From Candidatus Falkowbacteria bacterium (GTDB taxonomy: Bacteria; Patescibacteriota; Patescibacteriia; Patescibacteriales; WJLG01), in contig CAVVFV010000010.1 in assembly GCA_963747695.1 (NCBI GenBank), positions 325,618-389,617 on the forward strand: DNA of 64,000 nt, read 5' to 3'. A program made the position numbers and the translations under genes. The notes below the pieces were generated by a model. It worked only from the letters and a program-made list of their open reading frames with translations, did not search any database and was not told the DNA's origin. Positions 2,181-55,817 of the stretch are shown here, piece by piece (position 1 is the stretch's first letter; each line of letters opens with the position of its first letter).

Positions 2181-2248
2181 TTCCCCTCCAGGGAGGGGTG
2201 GCTCGCGCCGCCTTGTCCGCCTCGGGCGGAGCGAGACGGGGTGGGTTT
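2181..2248 (+). repeat. E1 GC-rich palindromic repeat, copy 1 (long variant)
   Basis: ttcccctccagggaggggtggctcgcgccgcc..ggcggagcgagacggggtgggt. It shares the CCCCTC/GAGGGG hairpin and the GGGGTGGGT tail with five other copies. Intergenic, 9 nt after the stop codon. Confidence 0.8.
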
Positions 2249-6781: not shown

Positions 6782-6895
6782 ATTACCTAAAATTATTGAA
6801 TTATCTGAGATTTATTATACCTTCCCAGCGTGGCCAGGTCAAAATAAAAACATCCTGCCTAGGTCGGATGTTTAATCTTCTTAGTGGGCAATATA

Positions 6896-6940
6896 GGACT
6901 CGCCAGTGGATGAACCCCCGGCGCCCGGTCGGACTTGCCC
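6896..6940 (-). repeat. tRNA-associated double-hairpin element, copy A (5'-truncated, degenerate)
   Basis: Minus-sense gtccgaccgggcgccgggggttcatccactggcgagtcc matches copies at 23224-23270 and 55761-55806. It is flanked by gggcaa (6886-6891) and ttgccc (6935-6940). Confidence 0.6.
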
Positions 6941-8536: not shown

Positions 8537-9094
8537 CTATTTTATTCGTTTTTCAACCTCGGCCAAAATTATCGCGAAAACCTGTTCGATCTCCAAATTT
8601 GTCGTGTCCAAAACGAACTCGTAATTTTTTAAATCAAAGACGTCAATGTTAAAATATTTGGCATAGCGCATTTTGTCGCTTTCCCGTCGGGCCATTAGGC
8701 TTTTCAAAACATCTTCCACCGATTGCAAATTTTTTCCTTCATTGCGCTCGCCGCTTTTTTGCAAGGCGCCAAAAATTCTTTTCGCGCCTTCGGTGAAAGA
8801 AACATCCAAATAAATTTTAAAAGATCGGGGGATAAAATACCAGGAAGTCCGGCCTTCAATGATAAAATTATCCTGCGTTTCACCCAGATTTTTTTGATAT
8901 TCATCGACTTCCAAATCAGTCGAGGGATCGGTTTCACCCAGCTTATTATATTCTGCCAAAGTCAGCCCGCGCTCCTTGGCCTTTTCCCGCCGGATGCCGC
9001 CGATATAATAACGCGGCCAGCCTAATTTGGCCGCCAGCATCTTAGCGATAGTTGATTTTCCCGAACCTTCAGCACCCGATATCGATATAATCAT
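8537..9094 (-). CDS. cmk: Cytidylate kinase-like nucleoside monophosphate kinase (archaeal-type)
   Basis: MIISISGAEGSGKSTIAKMLA P-loop at the N-terminus, IEGRTSWYF, 185 aa. Confidence 0.7.
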   Translation of the reverse strand: MIISISGAEGSGKSTIAKMLAAKLGWPRYYIGGIRREKAKERGLTLAEYNKLGETDPSTDLEVDEYQKNLGETQDNFIIEGRTSWYFIPRSFKIYLDVSFTEGAKRIFGALQKSGERNEGKNLQSVEDVLKSLMARRESDKMRYAKYFNIDVFDLKNYEFVLDTTNLEIEQVFAIILAEVEKRIK

Positions 9095-9244: not shown

Positions 9245-9290
9245 GTCCCCTTTTGGGAGGGGTGGCCGCGCCGCGCGGACGGGGTGGGTT
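9245..9290 (+). repeat. E1 GC-rich palindromic repeat, copy 2
   Basis: gtccccttttgggaggggtggccgcgccgcgcggacggggtgggtt, upstream of smc. Confidence 0.8.
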
Positions 9291-9318: not shown

Positions 9319-9346
9319 TTGTAAATACTCTACTTTGCGGTATAAT
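9319..9346 (+). promoter_or_regulatory. Candidate sigma70-type promoter of smc
   Basis: TTGTAA (9319-9324), 16-nt spacer, TATAAT (9341-9346), 30 nt upstream of the ATG at 9377. Confidence 0.45.
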
Positions 9347-9376
9347 AATAAACTAAACGTTAAAACATTTCACGAT

Positions 9377-11998
9377 ATGTATTTGGAGAAGCTAGATATC
9401 CAGGGTTTTAAATCTTTCGCCAGCAAAAACACGCTGGTTTTTCCGGCTGGCAACAAAGAAAAGAAGGGAATTACGGTGATCGTCGGGCCGAACGGTTCGG
9501 GCAAATCCAACGTCGCCGACGCGGTGCGCTGGGTTTTGGGCGAACAGAGTATGAAGACCTTGCGCGCCAAAACCTCCGAGGATGTCATCTTTTCCGGATC
9601 TTCTTCCAAGGGCCAGCTGGGCATGGCTGAGGTTTCTTTGTATTTGAATAACGAAGACGGCCAAGCGCCGATCGATTTTTCGCAATTGGTTATTACCCGC
9701 CGCATCTACCGCGACGGGGAAAGCGATTATTTATTGAATGAAGCCAAGGTCCGGCTGGCGGATATCCAGATCCTCTTAGCCAAATCCGGCGTCGGCCAAA
9801 AAACTTACAGCGTGATCGGCCAAGGAATGGTGGAGTCCTTTTTGGCCACGACCGCGAGCGAGCGCAAAGAATTTTTCGATGAAGCCACCGGGGTGCGCCA
9901 ATTCCAGATCAAGCGCGAACAATCTTTATCCAAACTGATCGCGAGCTACGAAAATTCCGGGCAAGCCAATATGCTTTTAGCCGAAATCGAACCGCGCTTG
10001 AAAAGTCTAACCCGCCAAGTGAATAAACTGCGCCAGCGCGATGAGATTGAAACCGAATTGAAAAATATCCGCACCGGTTATTTCAAATTCGTCTGGCATA
10101 ATTTGAATGATAAATTTTCCGAATATAATAATAAATATTTATCTTTGGAAGAGATTTTACGCGGCAAAACCGCAGAATTATCGCGGCTTAACGCCGAACT
10201 CGGCAAAATGGAAGAAAGCCGCGAGACTGAAGAATACGATAGATTGAGCGCGCAAGCCGCGGAAATCCAAAAGCAGCGCGAAGAAATTTTAAAAAAGATC
10301 GCGGCCACCGACGCTGAACTGACCCTGCAGTTGGAGGCGTCGGGCAATTTTGATCTTTCCTGGCTCGTTAGCAAAGAAAGCGAACTGAAACAAGAAGTCG
10401 ATCATGCCGAAAAGGTTCTCGCCGATTTGCAGAACGAGTTAGCGGCGAAGAATAATTTGGTCAAGAATTTCAGCGATGAAAAAAAGGTCTTGAATGATAA
10501 AATCGAGGAGATGAATAAATCCTTGCGTGAATTGTCCGGCTCCGGCAAAGGCATCGCCCGCGATGAAAAGAAAATCGCTTCGCTCTTAAGCGAAATAAAA
10601 ATTGAATTGGAAAAATTGGAGGAAGAAAACGATCTAAATAAACTTAAAGAATCATTGGGCAGATTAAAGCCGCTTATTTCCCAGGTCATCGCTTTGAGCT
10701 CGGCGGGCGTCGATAATGAGGCGTTTTATGCCAAGCAGCATGAAATCCAGGAAGGCCTTTTGCGCTTAGCCAAGGAGAAAGAAGAGCTGATCGGTCGCGC
10801 GCTTGATCCGGAAATGGCCGCCAAGTCGCTCGAGGAAAAAATCAATTTGCTGAATGAAAATCGGCGCCGCCAAAAAAATGAGCTGGAAACTACTTCAGCT
10901 AAAATCAAATCAAGCGGCGAGAATAAAGGCGACACGGACGTCAAAGACAAAAAAAACAAGCTGGAAGTTGCCCTCAAGGAGATCGATTCGCAGGTCGGAG
11001 CGATAAAAGAAAAACTTAATGCCTTCAATCGGGAACGGGAAGAAAAACGCTCCCGGCTTTTCCGCCTCCAGCGCGAAGGCCAGAATTTGCAGCAAGAGAT
11101 CAATCGGCTTTCCAACGAACTCAATGTCATCAAGATCGATTCGGCCAAATATGAAACCCGCTTGGAAGATCTAGAAACTGAGATCCGCAAAAATTTCGCC
11201 GATCTCAAAGACATCAAGGAAACCCGGACGCCGGAAAATATCAATACTTTAGAAGCGGAAATCAAGATCCGCCAGCTGGAAAACCAGTTAAGCCTGATCG
11301 GCGGCATCGACCCGGAAGTGGAAAAGGAATATTCTGAAACCAAAACCAAATTTGATTTCTTAAAGGAGCAGGTCACCGATCTGGAAACGGCTATCGGCAC
11401 ACTGGAGGGAGTCATCAAGGAATTGGATGGCAAGATCAAAGAAAGATTCGACAAGGAATTCAAAGAGATCTGCCATAAGTTTGAAGAATATTTTAAAATC
11501 TTGTTCAATGGCGGTTCGGCCAAGATCATCAAGCTGGAAGATGAGGAAGACGTGGCAAAGTCAGATGGCACGACTGAAGAAAAGAAAGATGAGCAAAATG
11601 AATTGCAGGAAAAAATCAAACGGCTTTCCAAATATAATGCGACCGGTTTGGCTGGGATTGAGATCCAAGCCTGCCCGCCCGGCAAAAAAATAAATACCAT
11701 CAATATGCTCTCCGGCGGCGAAAAAGCCTTGACCGCGATCGCCTTGATTTGCGCCATTATCAGCGCCAATCCCTCGCCGTTCGTCTTCTTGGACGAAGTC
11801 GATGCGGCGCTCGATGAATCCAATTCCGAACGCCTGGCCAAAATCCTTGAAGACTTATCTTCCAAAACTCAATTCATCGTCATCACCCACAACCGCGCGC
11901 CGATGCACCGCGCCAACGTCCTCTACGGCGTGACGATGCAGGAAAACGGCGTCTCCAAACTATTGAGCATCAAGTTGGAGGATTATATCAAAAAATAG
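9377..11998 (+). CDS. smc: Chromosome segregation protein SMC (short coiled-coil form)
   Basis: MYLEKLDIQGFKSFA, Walker A GPNGSGKSN, signature LSGGEKALTAIAL, Walker B FVFLDEVDAALD. I used the ATG at 9377, not the track start at 9335. Confidence 0.9.
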   Translation: MYLEKLDIQGFKSFASKNTLVFPAGNKEKKGITVIVGPNGSGKSNVADAVRWVLGEQSMKTLRAKTSEDVIFSGSSSKGQLGMAEVSLYLNNEDGQAPIDFSQLVITRRIYRDGESDYLLNEAKVRLADIQILLAKSGVGQKTYSVIGQGMVESFLATTASERKEFFDEATGVRQFQIKREQSLSKLIASYENSGQANMLLAEIEPRLKSLTRQVNKLRQRDEIETELKNIRTGYFKFVWHNLNDKFSEYNNKYLSLEEILRGKTAELSRLNAELGKMEESRETEEYDRLSAQAAEIQKQREEILKKIAATDAELTLQLEASGNFDLSWLVSKESELKQEVDHAEKVLADLQNELAAKNNLVKNFSDEKKVLNDKIEEMNKSLRELSGSGKGIARDEKKIASLLSEIKIELEKLEEENDLNKLKESLGRLKPLISQVIALSSAGVDNEAFYAKQHEIQEGLLRLAKEKEELIGRALDPEMAAKSLEEKINLLNENRRRQKNELETTSAKIKSSGENKGDTDVKDKKNKLEVALKEIDSQVGAIKEKLNAFNREREEKRSRLFRLQREGQNLQQEINRLSNELNVIKIDSAKYETRLEDLETEIRKNFADLKDIKETRTPENINTLEAEIKIRQLENQLSLIGGIDPEVEKEYSETKTKFDFLKEQVTDLETAIGTLEGVIKELDGKIKERFDKEFKEICHKFEEYFKILFNGGSAKIIKLEDEEDVAKSDGTTEEKKDEQNELQEKIKRLSKYNATGLAGIEIQACPPGKKINTINMLSGGEKALTAIALICAIISANPSPFVFLDEVDAALDESNSERLAKILEDLSSKTQFIVITHNRAPMHRANVLYGVTMQENGVSKLLSIKLEDYIKK

Positions 11999-22795: not shown

Positions 22796-23047
22796 AGCGG
22801 AGTGGGCGGGATCGTTCCCTCGCGGCTCTCGCCTCGCTCCTGACCAGTTCGAGCCCCTGAACGAGCCAAGGGGTTGACTTACATGAGCTGCGGTCGCGCT
22901 CGCGTCGCTTCCGCTCCGCTCACTTGTCCAGAGGCAGCGCCGACCTGCCCCCGGCAGGTCGTCGGCCGCTCGCCTGCGTCTGCCGCCGCCGGAATTGCGG
23001 CGGCAGACGCGTCTCGCTCCTGCAGTTCGAGTCCCGCTTCCTCACAA
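22796..23047 (+). repeat. GC-rich T-loop-ended units U1 (partial) and U2 (full, about 22863-23047)
   Basis: Both end in CTCGCTCCTG(AC)CAGTTCGAG(C/T)CCC. U2 aligns block-by-block with the minus-strand units at 55201-55365 and 55401-55571. 22796-22811 repeats 15 of 16 nt of the tRNA-Asp 3' end region. Confidence 0.7.
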
Positions 23048-23166: not shown

Positions 23167-23223
23167 AAAAATTTTTTTAAATATAAATAAGTGTTTGATT
23201 TTATCCGCCTTGTTCTTATTATA

Positions 23224-23283
23224 GGCCTCGCCAGGGGATGAACCCCTGGCGCCCGGTCGGATGACCGGGCGAACTACCACTCC
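23224..23283 (-). repeat. Double-hairpin element copy B fused to an exact 13-nt copy of the tRNA-Asp 5' end
   Basis: Minus-sense GGAGTGGTAGTTC (23283-23271, identical to 23166-23154) followed by gcccggtcatccgaccgggcgccaggggttcatcccctggcgaggcc. Confidence 0.75.
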
Positions 23284-23506
23284 AATTATCAGATGAACTA
23301 CCTTATTATATCATCTAAAAACAAAAAACGAAATTGCTTTCGCTTTCTTAAGGAAAAGAATATCAATAACGGCGATAACAGTCAAGGCCGTTCTTGGTTA
23401 ATTAGTCAATTAGTTAATTAGTTGAAAAAATCGGGCGTGTCGCGCCTTATCGCACTTCTTGACGCCTTGCGACTAATTAACTAATCAACTAATTTACCAA
23501 TTTCTT

Positions 23507-23672: not shown

Positions 23673-25046
23673 ATGAATAACGAGCAAATTTGGCAAGCGG
23701 CCTTGGGCGAGATTGAATTGAATTTGTCCAAAGCAAACTTCACCACGTGGTTTAAGAATACTTTTGTTTCTTCTTTTGAAGACGGCCGGGCGATCCTCTG
23801 CGTCCCTAATGCTTTTACCAAGTCGTGGTTAGAAACAAAATATCACAAAGAAATCGCCAGCGCGCTCGAGCATGTCGTAAATCTAAAAATCAAAGAAATA
23901 CTTTACAAAGTGGAGTTGAAGAAAGCTGCGGCTGGTGCCGGCCTCCTGGAAAAAATCCATCTCAAAAAGAAAAAAGAAAACAGTGAAAGCAATGAAATAG
24001 TTTCCTCGGCCAATCGCTTCGGACTCAATCCTAAATATACTTTTGAAGCTTTTGTCGTCGGGCGCGGGAACGAACTGGCCCATGCCGCTTGCCAGGCGGT
24101 GGCCAATAACCCCGGCCGCGTTTATAATCCGTTATTCATTTACGGCGGCGTCGGTCTGGGAAAAACTCATCTCCTGCAGGCCATCGGCAATGAAATAGCC
24201 AAACGGACCAACAAGGTTCTTTATACCACCAGCGAAAACTTCACCAACGACTATGTCAACTCGGTCCGCTCGGGCAAGGCCAAGGACTTCAAAGACCGTT
24301 ATCGCAATGTCGATCTCTTATTAATCGATGATGTGCAATTCATGGGCGGCAAAGACGGAACTCAACAAGAATTCTTCCACACCTTCAACGAACTGCAGCA
24401 AGCCGACAAACAAATAATTCTCACTTCCGACAAACCGCCGAAATTGATTCCGGCGCTCGAGGCGCGGCTGGCTTCGCGTTTCGAATCAGGAATGGTAGCC
24501 GATATCGGCCAACCGGACGTGGAAACCAAAGTGGCCATCTTGGAAAGAAAGGCGCGGGAAAAAAATTATCTCCTTGATACTGAAATCCTTCATTACGTCG
24601 CGGCAAATATTAAAAATAATATCCGCGAGCTGGAAGGCGCATTAAACAAAATCGTCGCTTATCATGAATTCAATAACACCGCGCCGACTTTAAAAACCGT
24701 CAAAAGCATCCTTAACGACTTAATCGTTTCCACCCAGGCCCGCTCGATCTCACCCCGGGATATTATGGAAGCCGTCTGCCGCTTCTATAGCATTGAAAAC
24801 AAAGATTTGATCGGCAAGGGCCGTAAAAAAGAGCTGGTCTGGCCGCGCCAAATTTCTATTTATTTGATGCGCAAGGAAATCAATTACTCCTACCCGACGA
24901 TCGGCAATGAGTTGGGCGGCCGGGATCACACCACGGCCATGCATGCTTATAATAAAATCCTCGACGAAGTTGAAACCAAGGAAAACGAAAAAGTAATTCA
25001 GGAAATCGAATCGATCAAGCAAATCCTTTACAGCTCCCCTTTGTGA
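23673..25046 (+). CDS. dnaA: Chromosomal replication initiator DnaA
   Basis: GGVGLGKTHLLQAIGN, LLIDDVQFMGGK and C-terminal HTTAMHAYNKI. 457 aa. Confidence 0.95.
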   Translation: MNNEQIWQAALGEIELNLSKANFTTWFKNTFVSSFEDGRAILCVPNAFTKSWLETKYHKEIASALEHVVNLKIKEILYKVELKKAAAGAGLLEKIHLKKKKENSESNEIVSSANRFGLNPKYTFEAFVVGRGNELAHAACQAVANNPGRVYNPLFIYGGVGLGKTHLLQAIGNEIAKRTNKVLYTTSENFTNDYVNSVRSGKAKDFKDRYRNVDLLLIDDVQFMGGKDGTQQEFFHTFNELQQADKQIILTSDKPPKLIPALEARLASRFESGMVADIGQPDVETKVAILERKAREKNYLLDTEILHYVAANIKNNIRELEGALNKIVAYHEFNNTAPTLKTVKSILNDLIVSTQARSISPRDIMEAVCRFYSIENKDLIGKGRKKELVWPRQISIYLMRKEINYSYPTIGNELGGRDHTTAMHAYNKILDEVETKENEKVIQEIESIKQILYSSPL

Positions 25047-25247
25047 GCAACCTGTGAACAAGCCCGTCCGGCGCTGTTCACAACCACCGCACAACTTTTC
25101 ACAACATCGGGATAACTTTTGCCGCCATTCAGTTTTACACAATCCGCAAAAAAAATTCCCCAGCTCATCCCCACCTTAGCCGGCCTTCCCGCGCCCCGAA
25201 ATAATTTAATATTAAAGAATATTTTTTATCCACCCGCTTTATCCACC
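25042..25247. promoter_or_regulatory. Putative oriC: DnaA-box cluster in the dnaA-dnaN spacer
   Basis: tgtgagcaa (25042), tgtgaacaa (25053), tgttcacaa (25075), ttttcacaa (25096), ttttacaca (25133), and ttatccacc twice (25226, 25239). An AT-rich stretch follows at 25200-25290. Confidence 0.65.
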
Positions 25248-25294
25248 CGCTTATTACTATTATTAACTTAAGATATATTTAATTAACAAAAGAT

Positions 25295-26437
25295 ATGAAT
25301 CTCTCAATCCTGAAAGAAAATTTAAAACAAGGATTGTTCGTTGTCAGCCACTTAGCCGGTAAAAATGCTAACCTGCCGATTTTGAATAATATTTTAGTCG
25401 AGGTTAAAAAAGAAGGAGTGCGGCTGGTCACCACGAATTTGGAGGTCGGCATAACGCATTTTATTCGCGGCAAGGTTGAAAAAGAAGGAAGTTTTACGGT
25501 GGATGCCAAGATTTTTGCCGACTACATCAATCTTTTGCCGAATAAAAAGATAGATTTGATCAGGGAGGATGGCGCGCTGCGCGTCGAGTGTGAAAATTTC
25601 AAGACAAAAATAAAAACCGAAGCCAGTGAAGATTTTCCTTTGATTCCGCAAATTGAGAAAAAAAATAAAAAAACGGTCAAGATTTCCGACTTGAAGAACG
25701 CCCTCGCGAAAGTAGTTTTTGCCGCCGCTTCGAGCGAATCCCGGATTGAGTTGTCTGGAGTCTTGTTTACCATTAACCAGAATAAATTAGTCTTGGCGGC
25801 CACCGACAGCTATCGCTTGGCGGAAAAGGAGCTGGAAATTAAAGAAGACTCGGGCGAAGGGAAAGAGAAGAACGTCCCGGAACAAAAAGTAATTGTCCCG
25901 GCCCGGACGATCCAGGAGATTTTGAGAATTTTAGCCGGCCTGGATCAGGGTGAAGGCGGCAAGAAGGAAATCAGTTTTTATATCAACGACAGCCAGATCT
26001 TGTTTGCCGTTGATAACACCGAGCTGATCTCGCGTTTGATCGAGGGGCAATACCCCGACTATAAGCAGATTATTCCGGCGGCCGGTAAAACCACGGCGGT
26101 GTTGAACCGCTTTGAATTAATTAGGGCCATTAAAGCGTCGGCGCTTTTTTCCAAAAGCGGCATTAACGATATTAATTTGGATTTCCCTGAAGGCAAGAAT
26201 CAGGTGATCGTCTCGTCGGCTTCCGGCACCACCGGCGAGAATATCGTCAAGATCGAGGCCGAGACCACCGGCATCGACAATGGCATCATCATCAACTATC
26301 AATATTTATTAGACGGGCTGAACAATATCGACGAAGAGACGATCAAACTGGAAGTGATCGACGGCAACACGCCCTGTCTGATCAAACCGCTCGGCGAAAA
26401 GGGATATTTATACATCATTATGCCGATTAAACAATAG
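25295..26437 (+). CDS. dnaN: DNA polymerase III beta sliding clamp
   Basis: 380 aa, MNLSILKENLKQGL... typical clamp N-terminus. Lies directly after dnaA. Confidence 0.9.
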   Translation: MNLSILKENLKQGLFVVSHLAGKNANLPILNNILVEVKKEGVRLVTTNLEVGITHFIRGKVEKEGSFTVDAKIFADYINLLPNKKIDLIREDGALRVECENFKTKIKTEASEDFPLIPQIEKKNKKTVKISDLKNALAKVVFAAASSESRIELSGVLFTINQNKLVLAATDSYRLAEKELEIKEDSGEGKEKNVPEQKVIVPARTIQEILRILAGLDQGEGGKKEISFYINDSQILFAVDNTELISRLIEGQYPDYKQIIPAAGKTTAVLNRFELIRAIKASALFSKSGINDINLDFPEGKNQVIVSSASGTTGENIVKIEAETTGIDNGIIINYQYLLDGLNNIDEETIKLEVIDGNTPCLIKPLGEKGYLYIIMPIKQ

Positions 26438-35626: not shown

Positions 35627-37270
35627 ATGATCAAAGAGATAATTGAACAAAACCCCAAGACTGCGGGAGAGTTGATGACTCTGAAGCGGAAACTGGCCAA
35701 AAGATTCGGAGAAAAAATTCCCCGGCACTCGGATTTGTGGCGGGAGTATTTAGCTTTGGTAAAAACCGGAAAAATAAAATATGATGAAAAATTCGCCCGC
35801 TTGTTGAAGCGGCGGGCGGTGCGGACGCTTTCCGGGGTGGCGGCGGTGGCGGTACTGACCAAGCCTTGGCCGTGCCCAGGCCAGTGTATTTTTTGCCCGA
35901 CGGAAAAGAATGTGCCGAAAAGTTATCTATCCAATGAGCCGGCCGTGATGCGGGCGATCCGGAATAATTTTGATCCTTACCAGCAGATGCGCACCAGACT
36001 GGAAGCTTTAGAGATCAACGGCCATCGTCCGGAAAAGATCGAGTTGATCGTCATCGGCGGCACCTGGAGCGTCTTGCCGACAGCTTATAAATTTTGGTTC
36101 ATCAAGGAATGCTTCCGGGCAGCGAACCGATTTCAAAGAAGAAATAAGAAAGAAGAAAGAAGAAAAAAAGTAAAAGAAAAAAAAATTGAAAGTTTGAAGA
36201 AAAATTTTTTTTCGGAACAGAAGAAAAACGAGAGGGCGAAGTATAAAATTATCGGGATCACTCTGGAAACGCGACCGGATTATATTGATGAGAAGGAATT
36301 GATTGAGATGCGCGAACTGGGCGCGACGCGCGTGGAGTTGGGCGTGCAAGCGATCGATGATCAGATTCTAGCGAAAAATAATCGCGGCCATGGCGTCGCG
36401 GAGATCGCCCGCGCCACGGCGTTACTGAAATTTTTTGGTTTTAAAGTTACTTATCATCTAATGCCGGGCTTGCCGGGCGCAACGGCCAAAAAAGATTTAG
36501 CAATGTTCAAGCAATTATTTTCCGACGAGCGTTTCCAGCCGGATCAGCTAAAATTTTATCCCACCGTGGTGACCAAGGGCTCGAAACTTTATCAATGGTG
36601 GAAAGCTGGAATTTATCATCCGTATTCGGATAAAGTTTTGCGGCAATTAATTGTGGAGTGTAAAAAAGCCGTGCCCGAATATGTCCGCATCATCCGCTTG
36701 ATCCGCGATATTCCCGGCGAATCGATCGAGGCGGGCAATACGATCACCAATCTGCGGCAGGTGATGCAGCAGGAAGGCGCGCGCTGCCGTTGCATCCGCT
36801 GCCGCGAAGTAAAAGATAAGTCGATTAAGGTCGGAAAACTAAAATTAAATATCCGCGAATACCCGGCGTCAGGCAGTCAGGAATTTTTTATTTCTTTTGA
36901 CAGCGCTGACGGAAAAACCCTTTACGGTTTTTGCCGGCTGCGGCTACCAGAGAGAAGAGAGAAAAGAGAAAAGATAAGAGAAAAAGAATTTTTATTTTTG
37001 AATGAGGCGGCAATCGTTCGGGAATTGCATGTCTATGGCGAACTGGTGCCGACCGGCAGCAGAACCACCCCCAAACCCCTCCTTGGAAAGGAGGGGAGAA
37101 TCCAGCACGGCGGTTTGGGAAAGAAATTGTTGGTCGAAGCGGAAAAAATTTCGCGGCAGCATAAATTTAAAACGATTGCCGTGATTGCCGGCATCGGTGT
37201 GCGCGTCTATTATAAAAAATTGGGCTATCGGCTGAAGGCCGGATATTTGGTTAAACGATTGGCTGATTGA
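35627..37270 (+). CDS. elp3: Elp3-like radical SAM / GNAT acetyltransferase (tRNA U34 cm5-modification family)
   Basis: Radical SAM cluster motif CPGQCIFCP, TRVELGVQAIDD, VRELHVYG...QHGGLGKKLLVEAEKI (GNAT). Lys/Glu-rich insert RRNKKEERRKKVKEKK. Confidence 0.85.
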   Translation: MIKEIIEQNPKTAGELMTLKRKLAKRFGEKIPRHSDLWREYLALVKTGKIKYDEKFARLLKRRAVRTLSGVAAVAVLTKPWPCPGQCIFCPTEKNVPKSYLSNEPAVMRAIRNNFDPYQQMRTRLEALEINGHRPEKIELIVIGGTWSVLPTAYKFWFIKECFRAANRFQRRNKKEERRKKVKEKKIESLKKNFFSEQKKNERAKYKIIGITLETRPDYIDEKELIEMRELGATRVELGVQAIDDQILAKNNRGHGVAEIARATALLKFFGFKVTYHLMPGLPGATAKKDLAMFKQLFSDERFQPDQLKFYPTVVTKGSKLYQWWKAGIYHPYSDKVLRQLIVECKKAVPEYVRIIRLIRDIPGESIEAGNTITNLRQVMQQEGARCRCIRCREVKDKSIKVGKLKLNIREYPASGSQEFFISFDSADGKTLYGFCRLRLPERREKREKIREKEFLFLNEAAIVRELHVYGELVPTGSRTTPKPLLGKEGRIQHGGLGKKLLVEAEKISRQHKFKTIAVIAGIGVRVYYKKLGYRLKAGYLVKRLAD

Positions 37271-42661: not shown

Positions 42662-42707
42662 GTCCCCTCTTGGGAGGGGTGCCGAGCCCGGCGAGGCGGG
42701 GTGGGTC
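42662..42707 (+). repeat. E1 repeat, copy 3
   Basis: gtcccctcttgggaggggtgccgagcccggcgaggcggggtgggtc, 16 nt after the glyA stop. Confidence 0.85.
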
Positions 42708-43808: not shown

Positions 43809-43852
43809 ACCCACCCCGCCTCGCCGAGCTCGGCACCCCTCCCAAGAGGGGA
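43809..43852 (-). repeat. E1 repeat, copy 4 (inverted relative to copy 3)
   Basis: The reverse complement tcccctcttgggaggggtgccgagctcggcgaggcggggtgggt differs from copy 3 at a single position. Confidence 0.85.
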
Positions 43853-43887
43853 TTTTAAAAAGCGTTACGGGTTACGCGTTATGAGTT

Positions 43888-44748
43888 ATGCGAATAATTG
43901 ATGGAAAAAAAATAGCCGATAAGATCAAGGACGAGATCGTCGCCGAGATTTTGTTAGCCAATAAAAATGATATTCATGCGCCGAAGCGGCCGCTGCTCGC
44001 GATAATTCTGGTTGGCGACCGGCCGGATTCGCAGCTTTATGTTTCCTTGAAAGAAAAAGAGGCGAAAAAAGTCGGCGTGGACACCACGCTTTATAAATTG
44101 TCGGTCAAGGCGCCCGAAAAGGAATTAGAAGAAACAATTAGTTTTTTAAATAATGATCAGGCGACTGACGGGATTTTATTGCAATTGCCGCTGCCGGATA
44201 ATTTCAATACCGATAAAATCGTCGCGCTGATTGATCCGGCTAAAGACGTTGATCATTTTCATCCGGAAAATTTGAAAAAATTAATGGACGGCGACGAAGA
44301 GCTGCTGCCGCCGGTCTGCCAGGTCATTTTGGAAATTTTGGAAGATATCAAATATGATCCAGCCGGCCGTTCCGCCTGCATCGTGGCTAATTCGGAAATT
44401 TTCGGCCTGTCGCTTGCCAAAATTCTGGAACTTCACGGCGCCTTGACTAAAATTGTCACTCCGGCCGATGAGGACTTAGTCGAACAAACCGTTAAGGCGG
44501 ATATTTTGGTAACGGCGGTCGGGCAACCCGATTTGATAACCGGAGAGATGGTAAAAAAGGACGCGGTGATCATCGACATCGGCATCAGCAAAGAAGATAA
44601 TAAAATTTTGGGTGATGTTAATGCCGCAAGCGTTAAAGACCGAGCCGGCTATCTCACGCCGGTACCGGGCGGAGTTGGGCCGATCACCATCGCCGCGGCG
44701 CTGAAGAATACCGTGGAAATTTGGAAAAAAAATAAAAAAGTTGACTAA
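43888..44748 (+). CDS. folD: Bifunctional methylenetetrahydrofolate dehydrogenase/cyclohydrolase
   Basis: ILVGDRPDSQLYV, GILLQLPLP and TPVPGGVGPIT. Confidence 0.9.
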   Translation: MRIIDGKKIADKIKDEIVAEILLANKNDIHAPKRPLLAIILVGDRPDSQLYVSLKEKEAKKVGVDTTLYKLSVKAPEKELEETISFLNNDQATDGILLQLPLPDNFNTDKIVALIDPAKDVDHFHPENLKKLMDGDEELLPPVCQVILEILEDIKYDPAGRSACIVANSEIFGLSLAKILELHGALTKIVTPADEDLVEQTVKADILVTAVGQPDLITGEMVKKDAVIIDIGISKEDNKILGDVNAASVKDRAGYLTPVPGGVGPITIAAALKNTVEIWKKNKKVD

Positions 44749-45158: not shown

Positions 45159-45266
45159 ACCGCCTTAACCTTTTCTTCAAGCCACGGCAGACGCTATCGT
45201 CTGCCCTTTTTTATACCAAATTTATTTATCCTTATATTAGCATAAATACTTGTTTTATGTTAATCA

Positions 45267-46068: not shown

Positions 46069-46311
46069 ATGTATTACCTTTATATCTTGAAGTGTGCGGA
46101 CAAAACTTTGTATACCGGCATCACGGTGGATTTAGTGCGGAGATTAAAAGAACACAATGAATCTAAAAAAGGCGCCAAATATACCCGCGCCAGAAGGCCG
46201 GTGAAAATTGCCTACTCTAAAAGATTTCTCAACCGCTCGGCGGCTGCCAAAGCGGAAAGCCGAATAAAAAAAATATCCCGGCGAGATAAACTTAAATTGA
46301 TCAAACAATAA
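46069..46311 (+). CDS. GIY-YIG nuclease-family protein
   Basis: YYLYILKCADKTLYTGITVDLVRRLKEHN. 80 aa. Confidence 0.8.
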   Translation: MYYLYILKCADKTLYTGITVDLVRRLKEHNESKKGAKYTRARRPVKIAYSKRFLNRSAAAKAESRIKKISRRDKLKLIKQ

Positions 46312-48587: not shown

Positions 48588-48699
48588 GTCATCCTCTGTT
48601 GGTTCCGTCGCAGTCTCGCCGCGGACTGCGACGCGATTGCCGCGCGTCGGGCAGCAGTCCGAGGCGAGACTGCTGCATGACCAAAAGGGGGCGGATGAC
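48588..48699 (+). repeat. E2 GC-rich nested-stem element, copy 2
   Basis: ttggttccgtcgcagtctcgccgcggactgc...gcagtccgaggcgagactgctgcatgaccaa, closed by gtcatcc (48588-48594) and ggatgac (48693-48699). Confidence 0.7.
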
Positions 48700-49525: not shown

Positions 49526-49903
49526 GTGAGCGATACCATCGAAAAGGCAGAGCTAGCCGGCCTGAGTGATTTGCTCATCAGCGATCAGCTCGTGGTGGAC
49601 GTTGCCGGCAAGAAGCTGTTCGTTTTTGTAAATCGCCAGAAGGAAACCGGCCTACGGAAACTTGTGGTGGACGTTGCCAGCAAGAAGCTGCTCGTTTCAG
49701 CAAATCATAAGAAAAAATCCGGTCTGCAGAAAAACGCCGAACATTCTGCCGCCTATCGCCTTTTTTTTGGCGAGCGGGAGACATCGCCCGGAGAAGCAAT
49801 GTTGATCTTTTGGCATTACTATGCTTTGGAAACCAGCCATTACATCACTGAAAACGGCACTTTTACCCTCCTGGTCGGCCAAGGTCGTCCTCGCCTGAAT
49901 TGA
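49526..49903 (+). CDS. Hypothetical protein with a 24-aa tandem repeat (GTG start)
   Basis: SD aaggagg 6 nt before the GTG. DNA repeat of period 72 nt (49592 and 49664) encodes VVDVAGKKLFVFVNRQKETGLRKL and VVDVASKKLLVSANHKKKSGLQKN. Confidence 0.55.
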   Translation: MSDTIEKAELAGLSDLLISDQLVVDVAGKKLFVFVNRQKETGLRKLVVDVASKKLLVSANHKKKSGLQKNAEHSAAYRLFFGERETSPGEAMLIFWHYYALETSHYITENGTFTLLVGQGRPRLN

Positions 49904-49919: not shown

Positions 49920-49950
49920 GCCCTGATAGCGATATCAGGGCTTTTGTTTG
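49920..49950 (+). terminator. Intrinsic terminator
   Basis: gccctgata-gcga-tatcagggc followed by ttttgtttg. Confidence 0.75.
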
Positions 49951-52644: not shown

Positions 52645-52688
52645 ACCCACCCCGTCCGCGAGGCGCGGCCACCCCTCCCAAGAGGGGA
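52645..52688 (-). repeat. E1 repeat, copy 5
   Basis: Reverse complement ttcccctcttgggaggggtggccgcgcctcgcggacggggtgggt. Flanked by AT-rich aattagcat/attcgc word arms. Confidence 0.85.
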
Positions 52689-54583: not shown

Positions 54584-54594
54584 AAGATTTAACA

Positions 54595-54696
54595 CACCCC
54601 GTCGCCGCGGCGGCGCCACCTCCGCCTCGGCCCGCCTTGCTGAAGCTTTGGCGAGGCAGGCAAGCCTTGGGCGAGACGGGCCTCTCAAGAGGGGAA
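54595..54696 (-). repeat. E1-related repeat, copy 6 (long, degenerate)
   Basis: Begins caccccgtcgccgcgg and ends cctctcaagagggga. The central part is a longer imperfect palindrome (gcctcggcccgccttgc...gcaagccttgggcgag). Confidence 0.6.
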
Positions 54697-55200: not shown

Positions 55201-55365
55201 GGTGCGGGAATTGAACTGGTCAGGAGCGAGGCAATGGCCGCGAGGGAACGAGCGGCCGGCAGCCGAGCGTCCGCCAAGCATTCGGGGAATGCTTGGCGCT
55301 GACCCTGGACGAGGGAACGAGCCGCTTTCCGGCGGCGAGTGACCGAGCAACGGTACCCAGACATG
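55201..55365 (-). repeat. GC-rich T-loop-ended unit U3
   Basis: Minus-sense catgtctggg...gtccagggtcagcgcc[hairpin]...ctcgctcctgaccagttcaattcccgcacc. Paralogous to U2 and U4. Confidence 0.7.
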
Positions 55366-55751: not shown

Positions 55752-55817
55752 AAGGGTTCGCCCGGTCATCCGACCGGGCGCCCGGGGTTCATCCCCGGGC
55801 GAGTCCCTCCCGGACCA
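55752..55817 (+). repeat. Diverged copy of the tRNA-Leu 3' end with double-hairpin element copy C inside the T-loop
   Basis: aagggttcg[cccggtcatccgaccggg cg cccggggttcatccccggg]cgagtccctcccggacca, compared with the genuine 3' end gtgggttcgagtcccacctggacca 40-100 nt upstream. Confidence 0.75.

Follow-up and report, generated by a model that had tools for sequence, protein, structure and literature searches.

What are the six GC-rich palindromic elements, here called E1, that lie scattered through the window (the whole 64-kb stretch of DNA analyzed), and how might they have come to be there? Our answer, to which we assign a probability of roughly 0.75, is that they are orphan units of a cross-phylum family of triplex-forming repeats whose gene-bearing form carries a DUF559 nuclease gene, and that the family would have spread by a process linked to that nuclease.

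E1 units in the window and beyond

On its G-rich strand, the E1 unit consists of a T, a pyrimidine (Y) arm CCCCTC(C/T), a 2-nt loop, a purine (R) arm GGAGGGG, a linker made up of TG, a variable hairpin and a C, and a third block or tail, GGGGTGGGT. Five copies in the window are intact and one is decayed. Copy 1 (2182-2246, + strand), which belongs to the long class described below, lies between a dksA-like gene and lspA and comprises the T, the Y arm CCCCTCC (2183-2189), the loop AG, the R arm GGAGGGG (2192-2198), a 39-nt linker containing a long hairpin (2199-2237) and the third strand GGGGTGGGT (2238-2246). Copy 2 (9246-9289, +), flanked by cmk (8537-9094, −) and smc (9335-11998, +), which are transcribed divergently, has a Y arm, CCCCTTT (9247-9253), with two T.G wobbles, followed by the R arm (9256-9262), a linker composed of TG and GCCGCGCCGCGCGGAC (9263-9280) and the third strand (9281-9289). 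Copy 3 (42663-42706, +) occupies the glyA-aroB spacer and is built from the Y arm CCCCTCT (42664-42670), the loop TG, the R arm GGAGGGG (42673-42679), a hairpin-bearing linker (42680-42697) and the third strand (42698-42706). Copies 4 (43809-43852) and 5 (52645-52688) are in reverse orientation (−), the former in the aroB-folD spacer and the latter between a DHH-family gene and tig. The decayed copy 6 (54592-54695, −), between smpB and the tmRNA gene, is of the “T7” variant class, with the Y arm CCCCTCT, the R arm AGAGG(CC), a 78-nt linker and the third strand GGGGTGTGT. The 18-nt core has five matches in the window at ≤3 mismatches against 0.02 expected (0 in 100 shuffles), and the tail has six against 1.9 expected. 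Loop 1 is 2 nt in these copies and loop 2 is 18 to 78 nt, the latter being long because a hairpin sits inside it; DNA folding gives two hairpins per unit, at −10 to −19 kcal/mol.

A sequence-only reading of this DNA had reported six copies, and its positions hold to within ~2 nt. The first hairpin and the second, variable hairpin that it had drawn were both confirmed by DNA folding and by the covariation described below, and its statements that all copies are intergenic (the neighboring genes were confirmed by Pfam), that both orientations are used (three + and three −) and that classical terminator features are lacking were borne out, there being no U-run on the transcribed strand at any of the six. 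We likewise counted the four runs of at least three Gs that it had noted in five of the six copies, copy 6 having GGGGTGTGT instead. The reported placement after stop codons is correct for five copies, which begin 8 to 41 nt past a stop codon, but not for copy 2, which lies in the divergent cmk-smc spacer. Relative to transcription, copies 1 and 3 are sense and copies 4, 5 and 6 are antisense; only one terminator-like prediction involves a copy: it is at copy 3, on the antisense strand.

To place the six copies in a family, we scanned one genome per species with a pattern of core, gap and tail and obtained at least 119 loci. Among the matches listed, E1 occurs in at least 16 phyla, the groups being Cyanobacteriota, Binatia, Verrucomicrobiota/Kiritimatiellota, Lentisphaerota, Patescibacteria, Nitrospirota, Latescibacterota, Acidobacteriota/Aminicenantes, Bacteroidota, Ignavibacteriota, Balneolota, Thermotogota, Thermodesulfobacteriota, Alphaproteobacteria, Acidimicrobiia, Chloroflexota and a Nanoarchaeia bin. 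Just two matches fell on viral contigs, and so the family is not phage-borne. A fuzzy parse resolved 258 units into two classes: in the long class, to which all window copies belong, the linker is TG, a variable GC hairpin and C, and in the short class it is a bare 2 to 5 nt (the linker is <9 nt, mostly 2 to 5 nt, in 191 of 422 units). Neighboring units within 400 nt of one another (n = 102 pairs) are arranged head-to-head in 52 cases, tail-to-tail in 39 and directly in 11, and the gene-less tail-to-tail dimers have spacers of ~24 nt. By crude gene calls, 106 units lie in tandem spacers, 42 in convergent spacers and 11 in divergent spacers; the tandem units divide into 54 sense and 52 antisense, and thus the orientation bias relative to transcription that the sequence-only reading had suggested looking for does not exist in this wider sample. 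A replication-strand bias, to which five of the six window copies conform, was rejected because orientation relative to GC skew is 52:53 in the wide sample. E1 is therefore multicopy, intergenic and without strand bias, and inverted pairs are frequent. Rfam gave no match at the gathering threshold or at E ≤10, and an RNA motif had no support; a full-text literature search with E1 sequence strings returned unrelated matches only, and all-against-all clustering of the neighboring ORFs at the 119 loci listed revealed no dominant neighbor family. BIME-like arrays in which short- and long-class units alternate are present at L086 (Leptothoe sp. PORK10, 1700-2960), L008 (1205-1465) and L187 (1833-2944), with periods of ~173, 39 and 135 to 208 nt; the L086 array contains a DUF559 gene at 2182-2553.

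The window itself, whose closest named relative is a Patescibacteria MAG, is ~45% GC. It holds dnaA, dnaN, AT-rich repeats of the TAATTAGT type and the point at which cumulative GC skew is lowest (23673-26437 and 23394-23500), and together these suggest that the chromosomal replication origin lies inside it. AT-rich heptad-like repeats (GTTACGG/GTTACGC/GTTATGA and similar) abut E1 copies (43866-43895), and the same heptad-like spacer repeats are kept in two relatives (L203, 2370-2405; L207, 2350-2390). A second dispersed GC-rich family (6871-6933, 23199-23274 and 55756-55806), unrelated in sequence to E1, consists of two tandem hairpins, GCCAGGGGATGAACCCCTGGCG and CCCGGTCGGATGACCGGGCG, and every copy adjoins a tRNA gene. 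There are also a 46-nt inverted pair (22812-22857 and 55206-55251), one of whose arms lies immediately 3′ of the tmRNA gene, a solitary 88-nt palindrome rich in GC (48593-48690) and a 72-nt tandem duplication of 79% identity (49589-49732) in an ORF without a Pfam match (49526-49903). A free-standing ORF for an 80-aa GIY-YIG nuclease (46069-46311), by Fic and HTH genes, adjoins no E1 copy. One 6-nt Y-R-R* module, CCTCCT/AGGAGG/GGTGGT (37064-37094, −), lies inside an ORF (35627-37270) and is probably a chance match.

The third strand and its relation to the first hairpin

The first hairpin of E1 is a 7+2+7 palindrome, and the G-rich tail is the mirror of its purine arm: a C-G pair at position j goes with G at tail position j, and a T-A pair with T (or A). 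Variant units keep this relation. The pair of arms CCCCTCT/AGAGGGG is found with the tail GGGGTGTGT, CTCCTCC/GGAGGAG with GAGGTGGGT, CTCCTCT/AGAGGAG with GAGGTGTGT, CCCTCCC/GGGAGGG with GGGAGGGGT, CCCCTTT/GAAGGGG with GGGGTAGGT and CCCCCCT/AGGGGGG with GGGGGGTGT. Across 422 units from 190 loci, the triplex rule is obeyed at 41 of the 59 variant positions with compensated pairs, compared with 2.2 ± 1.5 positions (maximum 8) in 2000 tail shuffles, a conservative count because the parser was anchored and its tail finding was biased toward the consensus. Six independent variant classes obey the rule, among them that of window copy 6, in which the T at tail position 7 agrees with a T-A seventh pair, and all six window copies fit the succession of Y block, complementary R block and mirror G/T(A) block. 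A mirror repeat is something that neither a copying mechanism nor a symmetric protein would impose, which argues for an antiparallel purine-motif triple-helix code. Read from this covariation, the mirror relation specifies a putative antiparallel purine-motif triplex (G.G-C, T.A-T and A.A-T) and not a G-quadruplex (G4), and such natural triple covariation is in-genome evidence for the predicted non-B DNA fold.

The hairpin in loop 2 also covaries. Its cells are paired in 98.7% of cases versus 90.5% in shuffles, three of its five pairs change on both sides, and slid controls reach ≤65%. GNA triloops are present in 102 of 165 loops, 99 of the 102 being closed by C-G, and the commonest form in the family is d(C-GNA-G).

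Two other accounts would explain the elements by their secondary structure. The sequence-only reading had proposed a G4/double-hairpin switch with an i-motif on the opposite strand; such a switch would act on transcripts or on DNA. In five of the six window copies and in 212 of 422 units there are indeed four G3+ runs whose outer loops are 1 nt long and whose long central loop contains the hairpin, a comparable switch has been proposed for E. coli repeats (Kaplan 2016, as cited in PMC8044849), and related archaeal repeats turn to G4 after annealing in K+ (PMC8044849). Those archaeal repeats, which recur in Methanomicrobiaceae as PQS plus C-tract and interconvert in vitro between hairpin, antiparallel triplex and G4 (PMC8044849), resemble E1 in having G-runs beside a complementary C-tract, but their C-tract is 3′ of the G-runs and no gene association has been reported for them, whereas the covariation of E1 singles out the triplex. 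Moreover, once the variable hairpin is left aside, half of the E1 units fall short of four G3+ runs. The CTTG hairpin-1 loops and the CTCCTCC, CCCCTCT and CCCTCCC classes interrupt the runs, and in these units the tail still mirrors the first hairpin (for example, CTCCTCC/GGAGGAG/GAGGTGGGT), so that the fold which is conserved is not G4. G4 formation would have to compete with the complementary C-rich arm, an i-motif found no support, and an RNA G4 cannot be the common function since the two orientations are equal with respect to transcription. G4 formation may be physically possible for about half of the units, because an equilibrium among G4, hairpin and triplex has been demonstrated in vitro for the analogous archaeal repeats, but we regard the switch as a very unlikely explanation of E1. 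Highly improbable, too, are factor-independent terminators or stabilizers of mRNA 3′ ends, roles often assigned to REPs, with no nuclease link. The start of five of the six window copies 8 to 41 nt past a stop, the 42 convergent against 11 divergent spacers of the wider sample and the stability of the hairpins (−10 to −19 kcal/mol) speak for such a role. Against it, the transcribed strand has no U-run, although canonical terminators with a hairpin and a T-run occur elsewhere (e.g., 45186-45205 and 49920-49941), and on this ground an intrinsic terminator was rejected; copy 2 is in a divergent promoter region; the invariant tail and the triple covariation are left unexplained; orthologous copies decay in relatives, one of which lacks the spacer; and E. 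coli PIT elements had neither promoter nor terminator activity according to the earlier work that PMC4666352 cites.

DUF559 genes beside triplex repeats

Approaching the question from the repeat side, we asked which ORFs have units on both sides at 121 loci (those derived from the pattern, plus L122). At four of them, in the lineages Bacteroidales, Binatia, the cyanobacterium Leptothoe and Aminicenantes, units flank an ORF of ~120 aa that encodes a DUF559 protein (PF04480, E ~1e-30); the four come from 4 phyla, and their proteins are 53 to 60% identical. For a test from the protein side, we scanned metagenomes by DUF559 alignment alone and examined the best 80 of 553 relatives. E1 units lie within 150 nt of 71 of these best 80 genes, and a sequence-agnostic Y-R-R* finder raised the number to 75 of the 80, the four added genes carrying rule-obeying modules of variant sequence. 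This finder returned 192 modules in 236 kb versus 0 in shuffles, and unit density is 21-fold higher beside the DUF559 gene. Contig ends cut two of the five genes (of 80) that have no detectable unit.

The arrangement around the gene is regular. Upstream units are co-oriented with it in 75 cases and opposite in 17, and downstream units are opposite in 79 and co-oriented in 14, so that the cassette reads unit, A/T-rich spacer of ~2 to 26 nt, ATG to stop, 0 to 20 nt or an overlap, and inverted unit, with the tails of the two units pointing inward (tail-to-tail) around the DUF559 gene. Cassettes are 435 to 695 bp long (median, ~488 bp), with one outlier of 1488 bp. The left and right units of a cassette sometimes differ in variant class, and protein similarity tracks repeat class only modestly. 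No target-site duplications were found at the 44 cassettes with both outer flanks readable, nor did we find a recent identical insertion pair proving movement. Solo units, inverted dimers and arrays vastly outnumber DUF559 cassettes. The physical linkage of E1 units to DUF559 genes is apparently new, as the literature that we searched held no paper joining DUF559 or YcjD to intrastrand-triplex repeats.

Profile matches assign the partner DUF559 to the Vsr/PD-(D/E)XK fold, with conserved acidic and His residues (E67, D69 and H73 are invariant): in the PDB, the DUF559 profile matches the endonuclease-like protein 3HRL at E 2e-22 and the homing endonuclease I-Bth0305I (3R3P) at E 4e-3. It thus shares a nuclease fold family, and the habit of small selfish-gene-like ORFs, with the Vsr-like (EDxHD) homing endonucleases such as I-Bth0305I (PMC3239194; Dassa 2009, PMC2677866); unlike I-Bth0305I, to which the similarity is weak and than which 3HRL is much closer, the E1-associated gene is free-standing between units and not in an intron or intein. 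PADLOC gave weak nuclease-domain similarities only and no defense-system assignment. At E ≤1e-15, clustering at 90% identity divides the E1-type subfamily into at least 7975 clusters, most of them singletons on short contigs, with protein lengths of 121 to 214 aa, a spread that arises because the ORF often runs through the right-hand unit.

The coupling of DUF559 to triplex repeats recurs at a second, deeper level. The YcjD subfamily is 36% identical to E1-type DUF559, and the nearest intact unit to E. coli K-12 ycjD, ~170 nt downstream, is CCCTCGCCCC-TCT-GGGGAGAGGG-TTA-GGGTGAGGGG, that is, a BoxC or PIT element and no. 9 of the TMECO repeats of Holder et al. 2015 (PMC4666352). YcjD-type genes lie beside BoxC/TMECO units in E. 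coli, Enterobacter, Klebsiella, Franconibacter and one further contig, at different chromosomal loci; the genes of Enterobacter, Klebsiella and Franconibacter overlap an inverted TMECO at their 3′ ends, and in the further contig TMECO units bracket the gene. Of 5426 complete E. coli genomes, no more than 3377 retain ≥80% of a query made up of ycjD and its flanks. In one E. coli strain an IS1 is inserted in ycjD. No Salmonella protein was found among the best 120 YcjD homologues, which agrees with the reported absence of TMECO from Salmonella (PMC4666352).

BoxC and PIT elements were reportedly the subject of earlier studies by Bergler (1992) and by Hoyne and Maher (2000, 2002). MG1655 carries 23 TMECO copies, and 3610 were counted across 262 proteobacterial genomes; the copies are intergenic, without strand bias and in inverted A+B pairs, neither transposase or integrase remnants nor mobility genes were seen near them, and no nuclease gene was reported in association with them (PMC4666352). 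The same study reported an excess of rearrangement at triplex-motif loci, found cyanobacteria to be abundant in G/C-rich triplex motifs and noted that purine-motif triplexes do not form in RNA (PMC4666352). E1 resembles these repeats in its three consecutive blocks on a single strand, namely a Y arm, an R arm complementary to it and a third block, rich in G/T, that mirrors the R arm (class II purine motif), in being multicopy, intergenic, without strand bias and often in inverted pairs of two subtypes, and in having a DUF559 neighbor, found for both. E1 has 7 triads (CCCCTCC/GGAGGGG/GGGGTGG), whereas TMECO has 9 (CCCTCNCCC/GGGNGAGGG/GGGNGAGGG), and the window units, CCCCTC(C/T)-N2-GGAGGGG-...-GGGGTGGGT, do not match the TMECO pattern CCCTCNCCC-N3-6-GGGNGAGGG-N3-GGGNGAGGG. 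E1 is in at least 16 phyla, including Patescibacteria, whereas BoxC/PIT/TMECO is in Proteobacteria only, and its loop 2 may hold a covarying hairpin of 9 to 60 nt or more, whereas the published search used loops of 1 to 6 nt (ITxF definition, Holder 2015, PMC4666352). Under a definition in which both loops are 1 to 6 nt, loop 2 of the window copies is too long, and as a consequence long-class units such as those of the window escape the published search. A class II purine-motif intrastrand triplex has physical evidence, from CD and NMR, in TMECO (PMC4666352), whereas the fold of E1 is predicted here from covariation. We concluded that E1 is a new and very widespread sequence family, distinct from TMECO and of the same structural kind. 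We further put forward, tentatively and at somewhat less than even odds, that DUF559 nucleases, E. coli YcjD included, could be the cognate enzymes of the BoxC/PIT/TM repeats, forming a pan-bacterial class of selfish or domesticated elements whose ends would be recognized as triple-helical DNA.

Orphan units and the spread of the family

Neither tblastn nor a custom HMM found a DUF559 gene or remnant in the 64-kb window or in Patescibacteria-like loci, and the window copies are therefore orphans. In two relatives, L203 and L207, whose aroB proteins are 82% and 76% identical to that of the window, the orthologous copy 3 in the glyA-aroB spacer is decayed, with a broken purine arm, loop insertions and a mutated tail; in a third, L205, glyA and aroB overlap, and both the spacer and copy 3 are absent. 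In L203, L205 and L207 the aroB-folD spacer contains no copy 4, which is thus lineage-specific, and another assembly of the window's own genome (L122) breaks exactly at copy 4. The presence/absence differences among related genomes that the sequence-only reading had thought worth a search thus exist, and this decay and polymorphism argue for older and newer insertions drifting neutrally rather than for a conserved regulatory site. Selfish REP/MITE-like behavior, which that reading had named as an alternative, is supported. The window copies are passive passengers in intergenic spacers; they may have an exapted role in mRNA 3′-end stability, which we keep as a possibility because five of the six lie 8 to 41 nt past stops.

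We picture the spread of the family as follows. On the G-rich strand, the 7-nt Y arm CCCCTCC would pair with the R arm GGAGGGG, and after a turn the tail GGGGTGG would run along the purine arm in the major groove, in antiparallel orientation, and make G.G-C and T.A-T triplets. Such a triplex would form in vivo on transiently single-stranded DNA. In the gene-bearing form, two inward-tailed units flank one gene for a ~120-aa DUF559 (Vsr-like PD-(D/E)XK) nuclease, which may recognize the units as a folded single strand or as a 7+2+7 duplex palindrome and would nick or cut beside them; units or whole cassettes could then be copied or rearranged through nick- or break-induced recombination or repair. 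We infer that DUF559 mobilizes the repeats, much as REPs and REPINs rely on RAYT or as homing-endonuclease genes spread. Because cleavage by PD-(D/E)XK nucleases is hydrolytic and these enzymes are unable to join strands alone, a transposase-like role would need host functions.

The repeats might instead pre-exist and spread by other means, with DUF559 acting either as a free-standing homing-type gene that has tail-to-tail dimers as its insertion targets or as a repair nuclease domesticated for triplex-stalled forks. This account, which we consider unlikely, draws on the fact that gene-less tail-to-tail dimers are common (39 of 102 adjacent pairs) and resemble empty sites, on the known role of Vsr-like nucleases as homing endonucleases, and on the single-copy state and presence/absence polymorphism of YcjD in E. 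coli. It requires a separate mechanism for the spread of the repeats, however, and the deep co-divergence of the two pairs (E1-type DUF559 accompanies 7-triad units, and the YcjD type, 36% identical to it, accompanies 9-triad TMECO), together with the fixed spacing and orientation of units around the gene, favors a specific partnership over opportunistic insertion. We give almost no credence to the remaining account, in which E1 units are REPs or REPINs served by RAYT (an HUH tyrosine transposase) or MITEs of a DDE transposon. They are dispersed, intergenic and GC-rich and form inverted dimers and BIME-like arrays (pairs, 52/39/11), but the GTAG-type 5′ motif is not present, the flanked gene is DUF559 and not a Y1 transposase, no other neighbor family recurs across the 119 loci listed, and, whereas REPs are lineage-specific, the same ~28 conserved nt recur across at least 16 phyla. 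With no RAYT or DDE transposon gene flanked and no target-site duplication, both candidates were rejected. The likeness of E1 to REP/REPIN-RAYT is one of organization: short GC-rich intergenic palindromes with inverted dimers and arrays, and a small gene within inverted units alongside hundreds of orphan units. The differences are in the partner, which is a PD-(D/E)XK protein (DUF559) and not an HUH transposase, in the third-strand block and in the cross-phylum sequence.

The BoxC/PIT/TM repeats have been known since 1992 as triplex-folding sequences that mark unstable loci, without a function, an origin or a partner protein. The DUF559 link gives these long-unexplained repeats a candidate partner enzyme, and the link, which is seen in two deeply diverged repeat/protein pairs, one of which includes E. 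coli YcjD, is testable in a model organism. It also supplies a hypothesis of function for a very large uncharacterized protein family (at least ~8000 sequence clusters in this subfamily alone) and widens the range of triplex repeats to take in Patescibacteria and many further phyla, including units with a loop-2 hairpin that published triplex searches miss. If the tentative wider reading is true, these elements would be an analogue of REP-RAYT with a PD-(D/E)XK nuclease and structure-coded ends, and the nuclease would cause the genomic instability that has been reported where such repeats lie.
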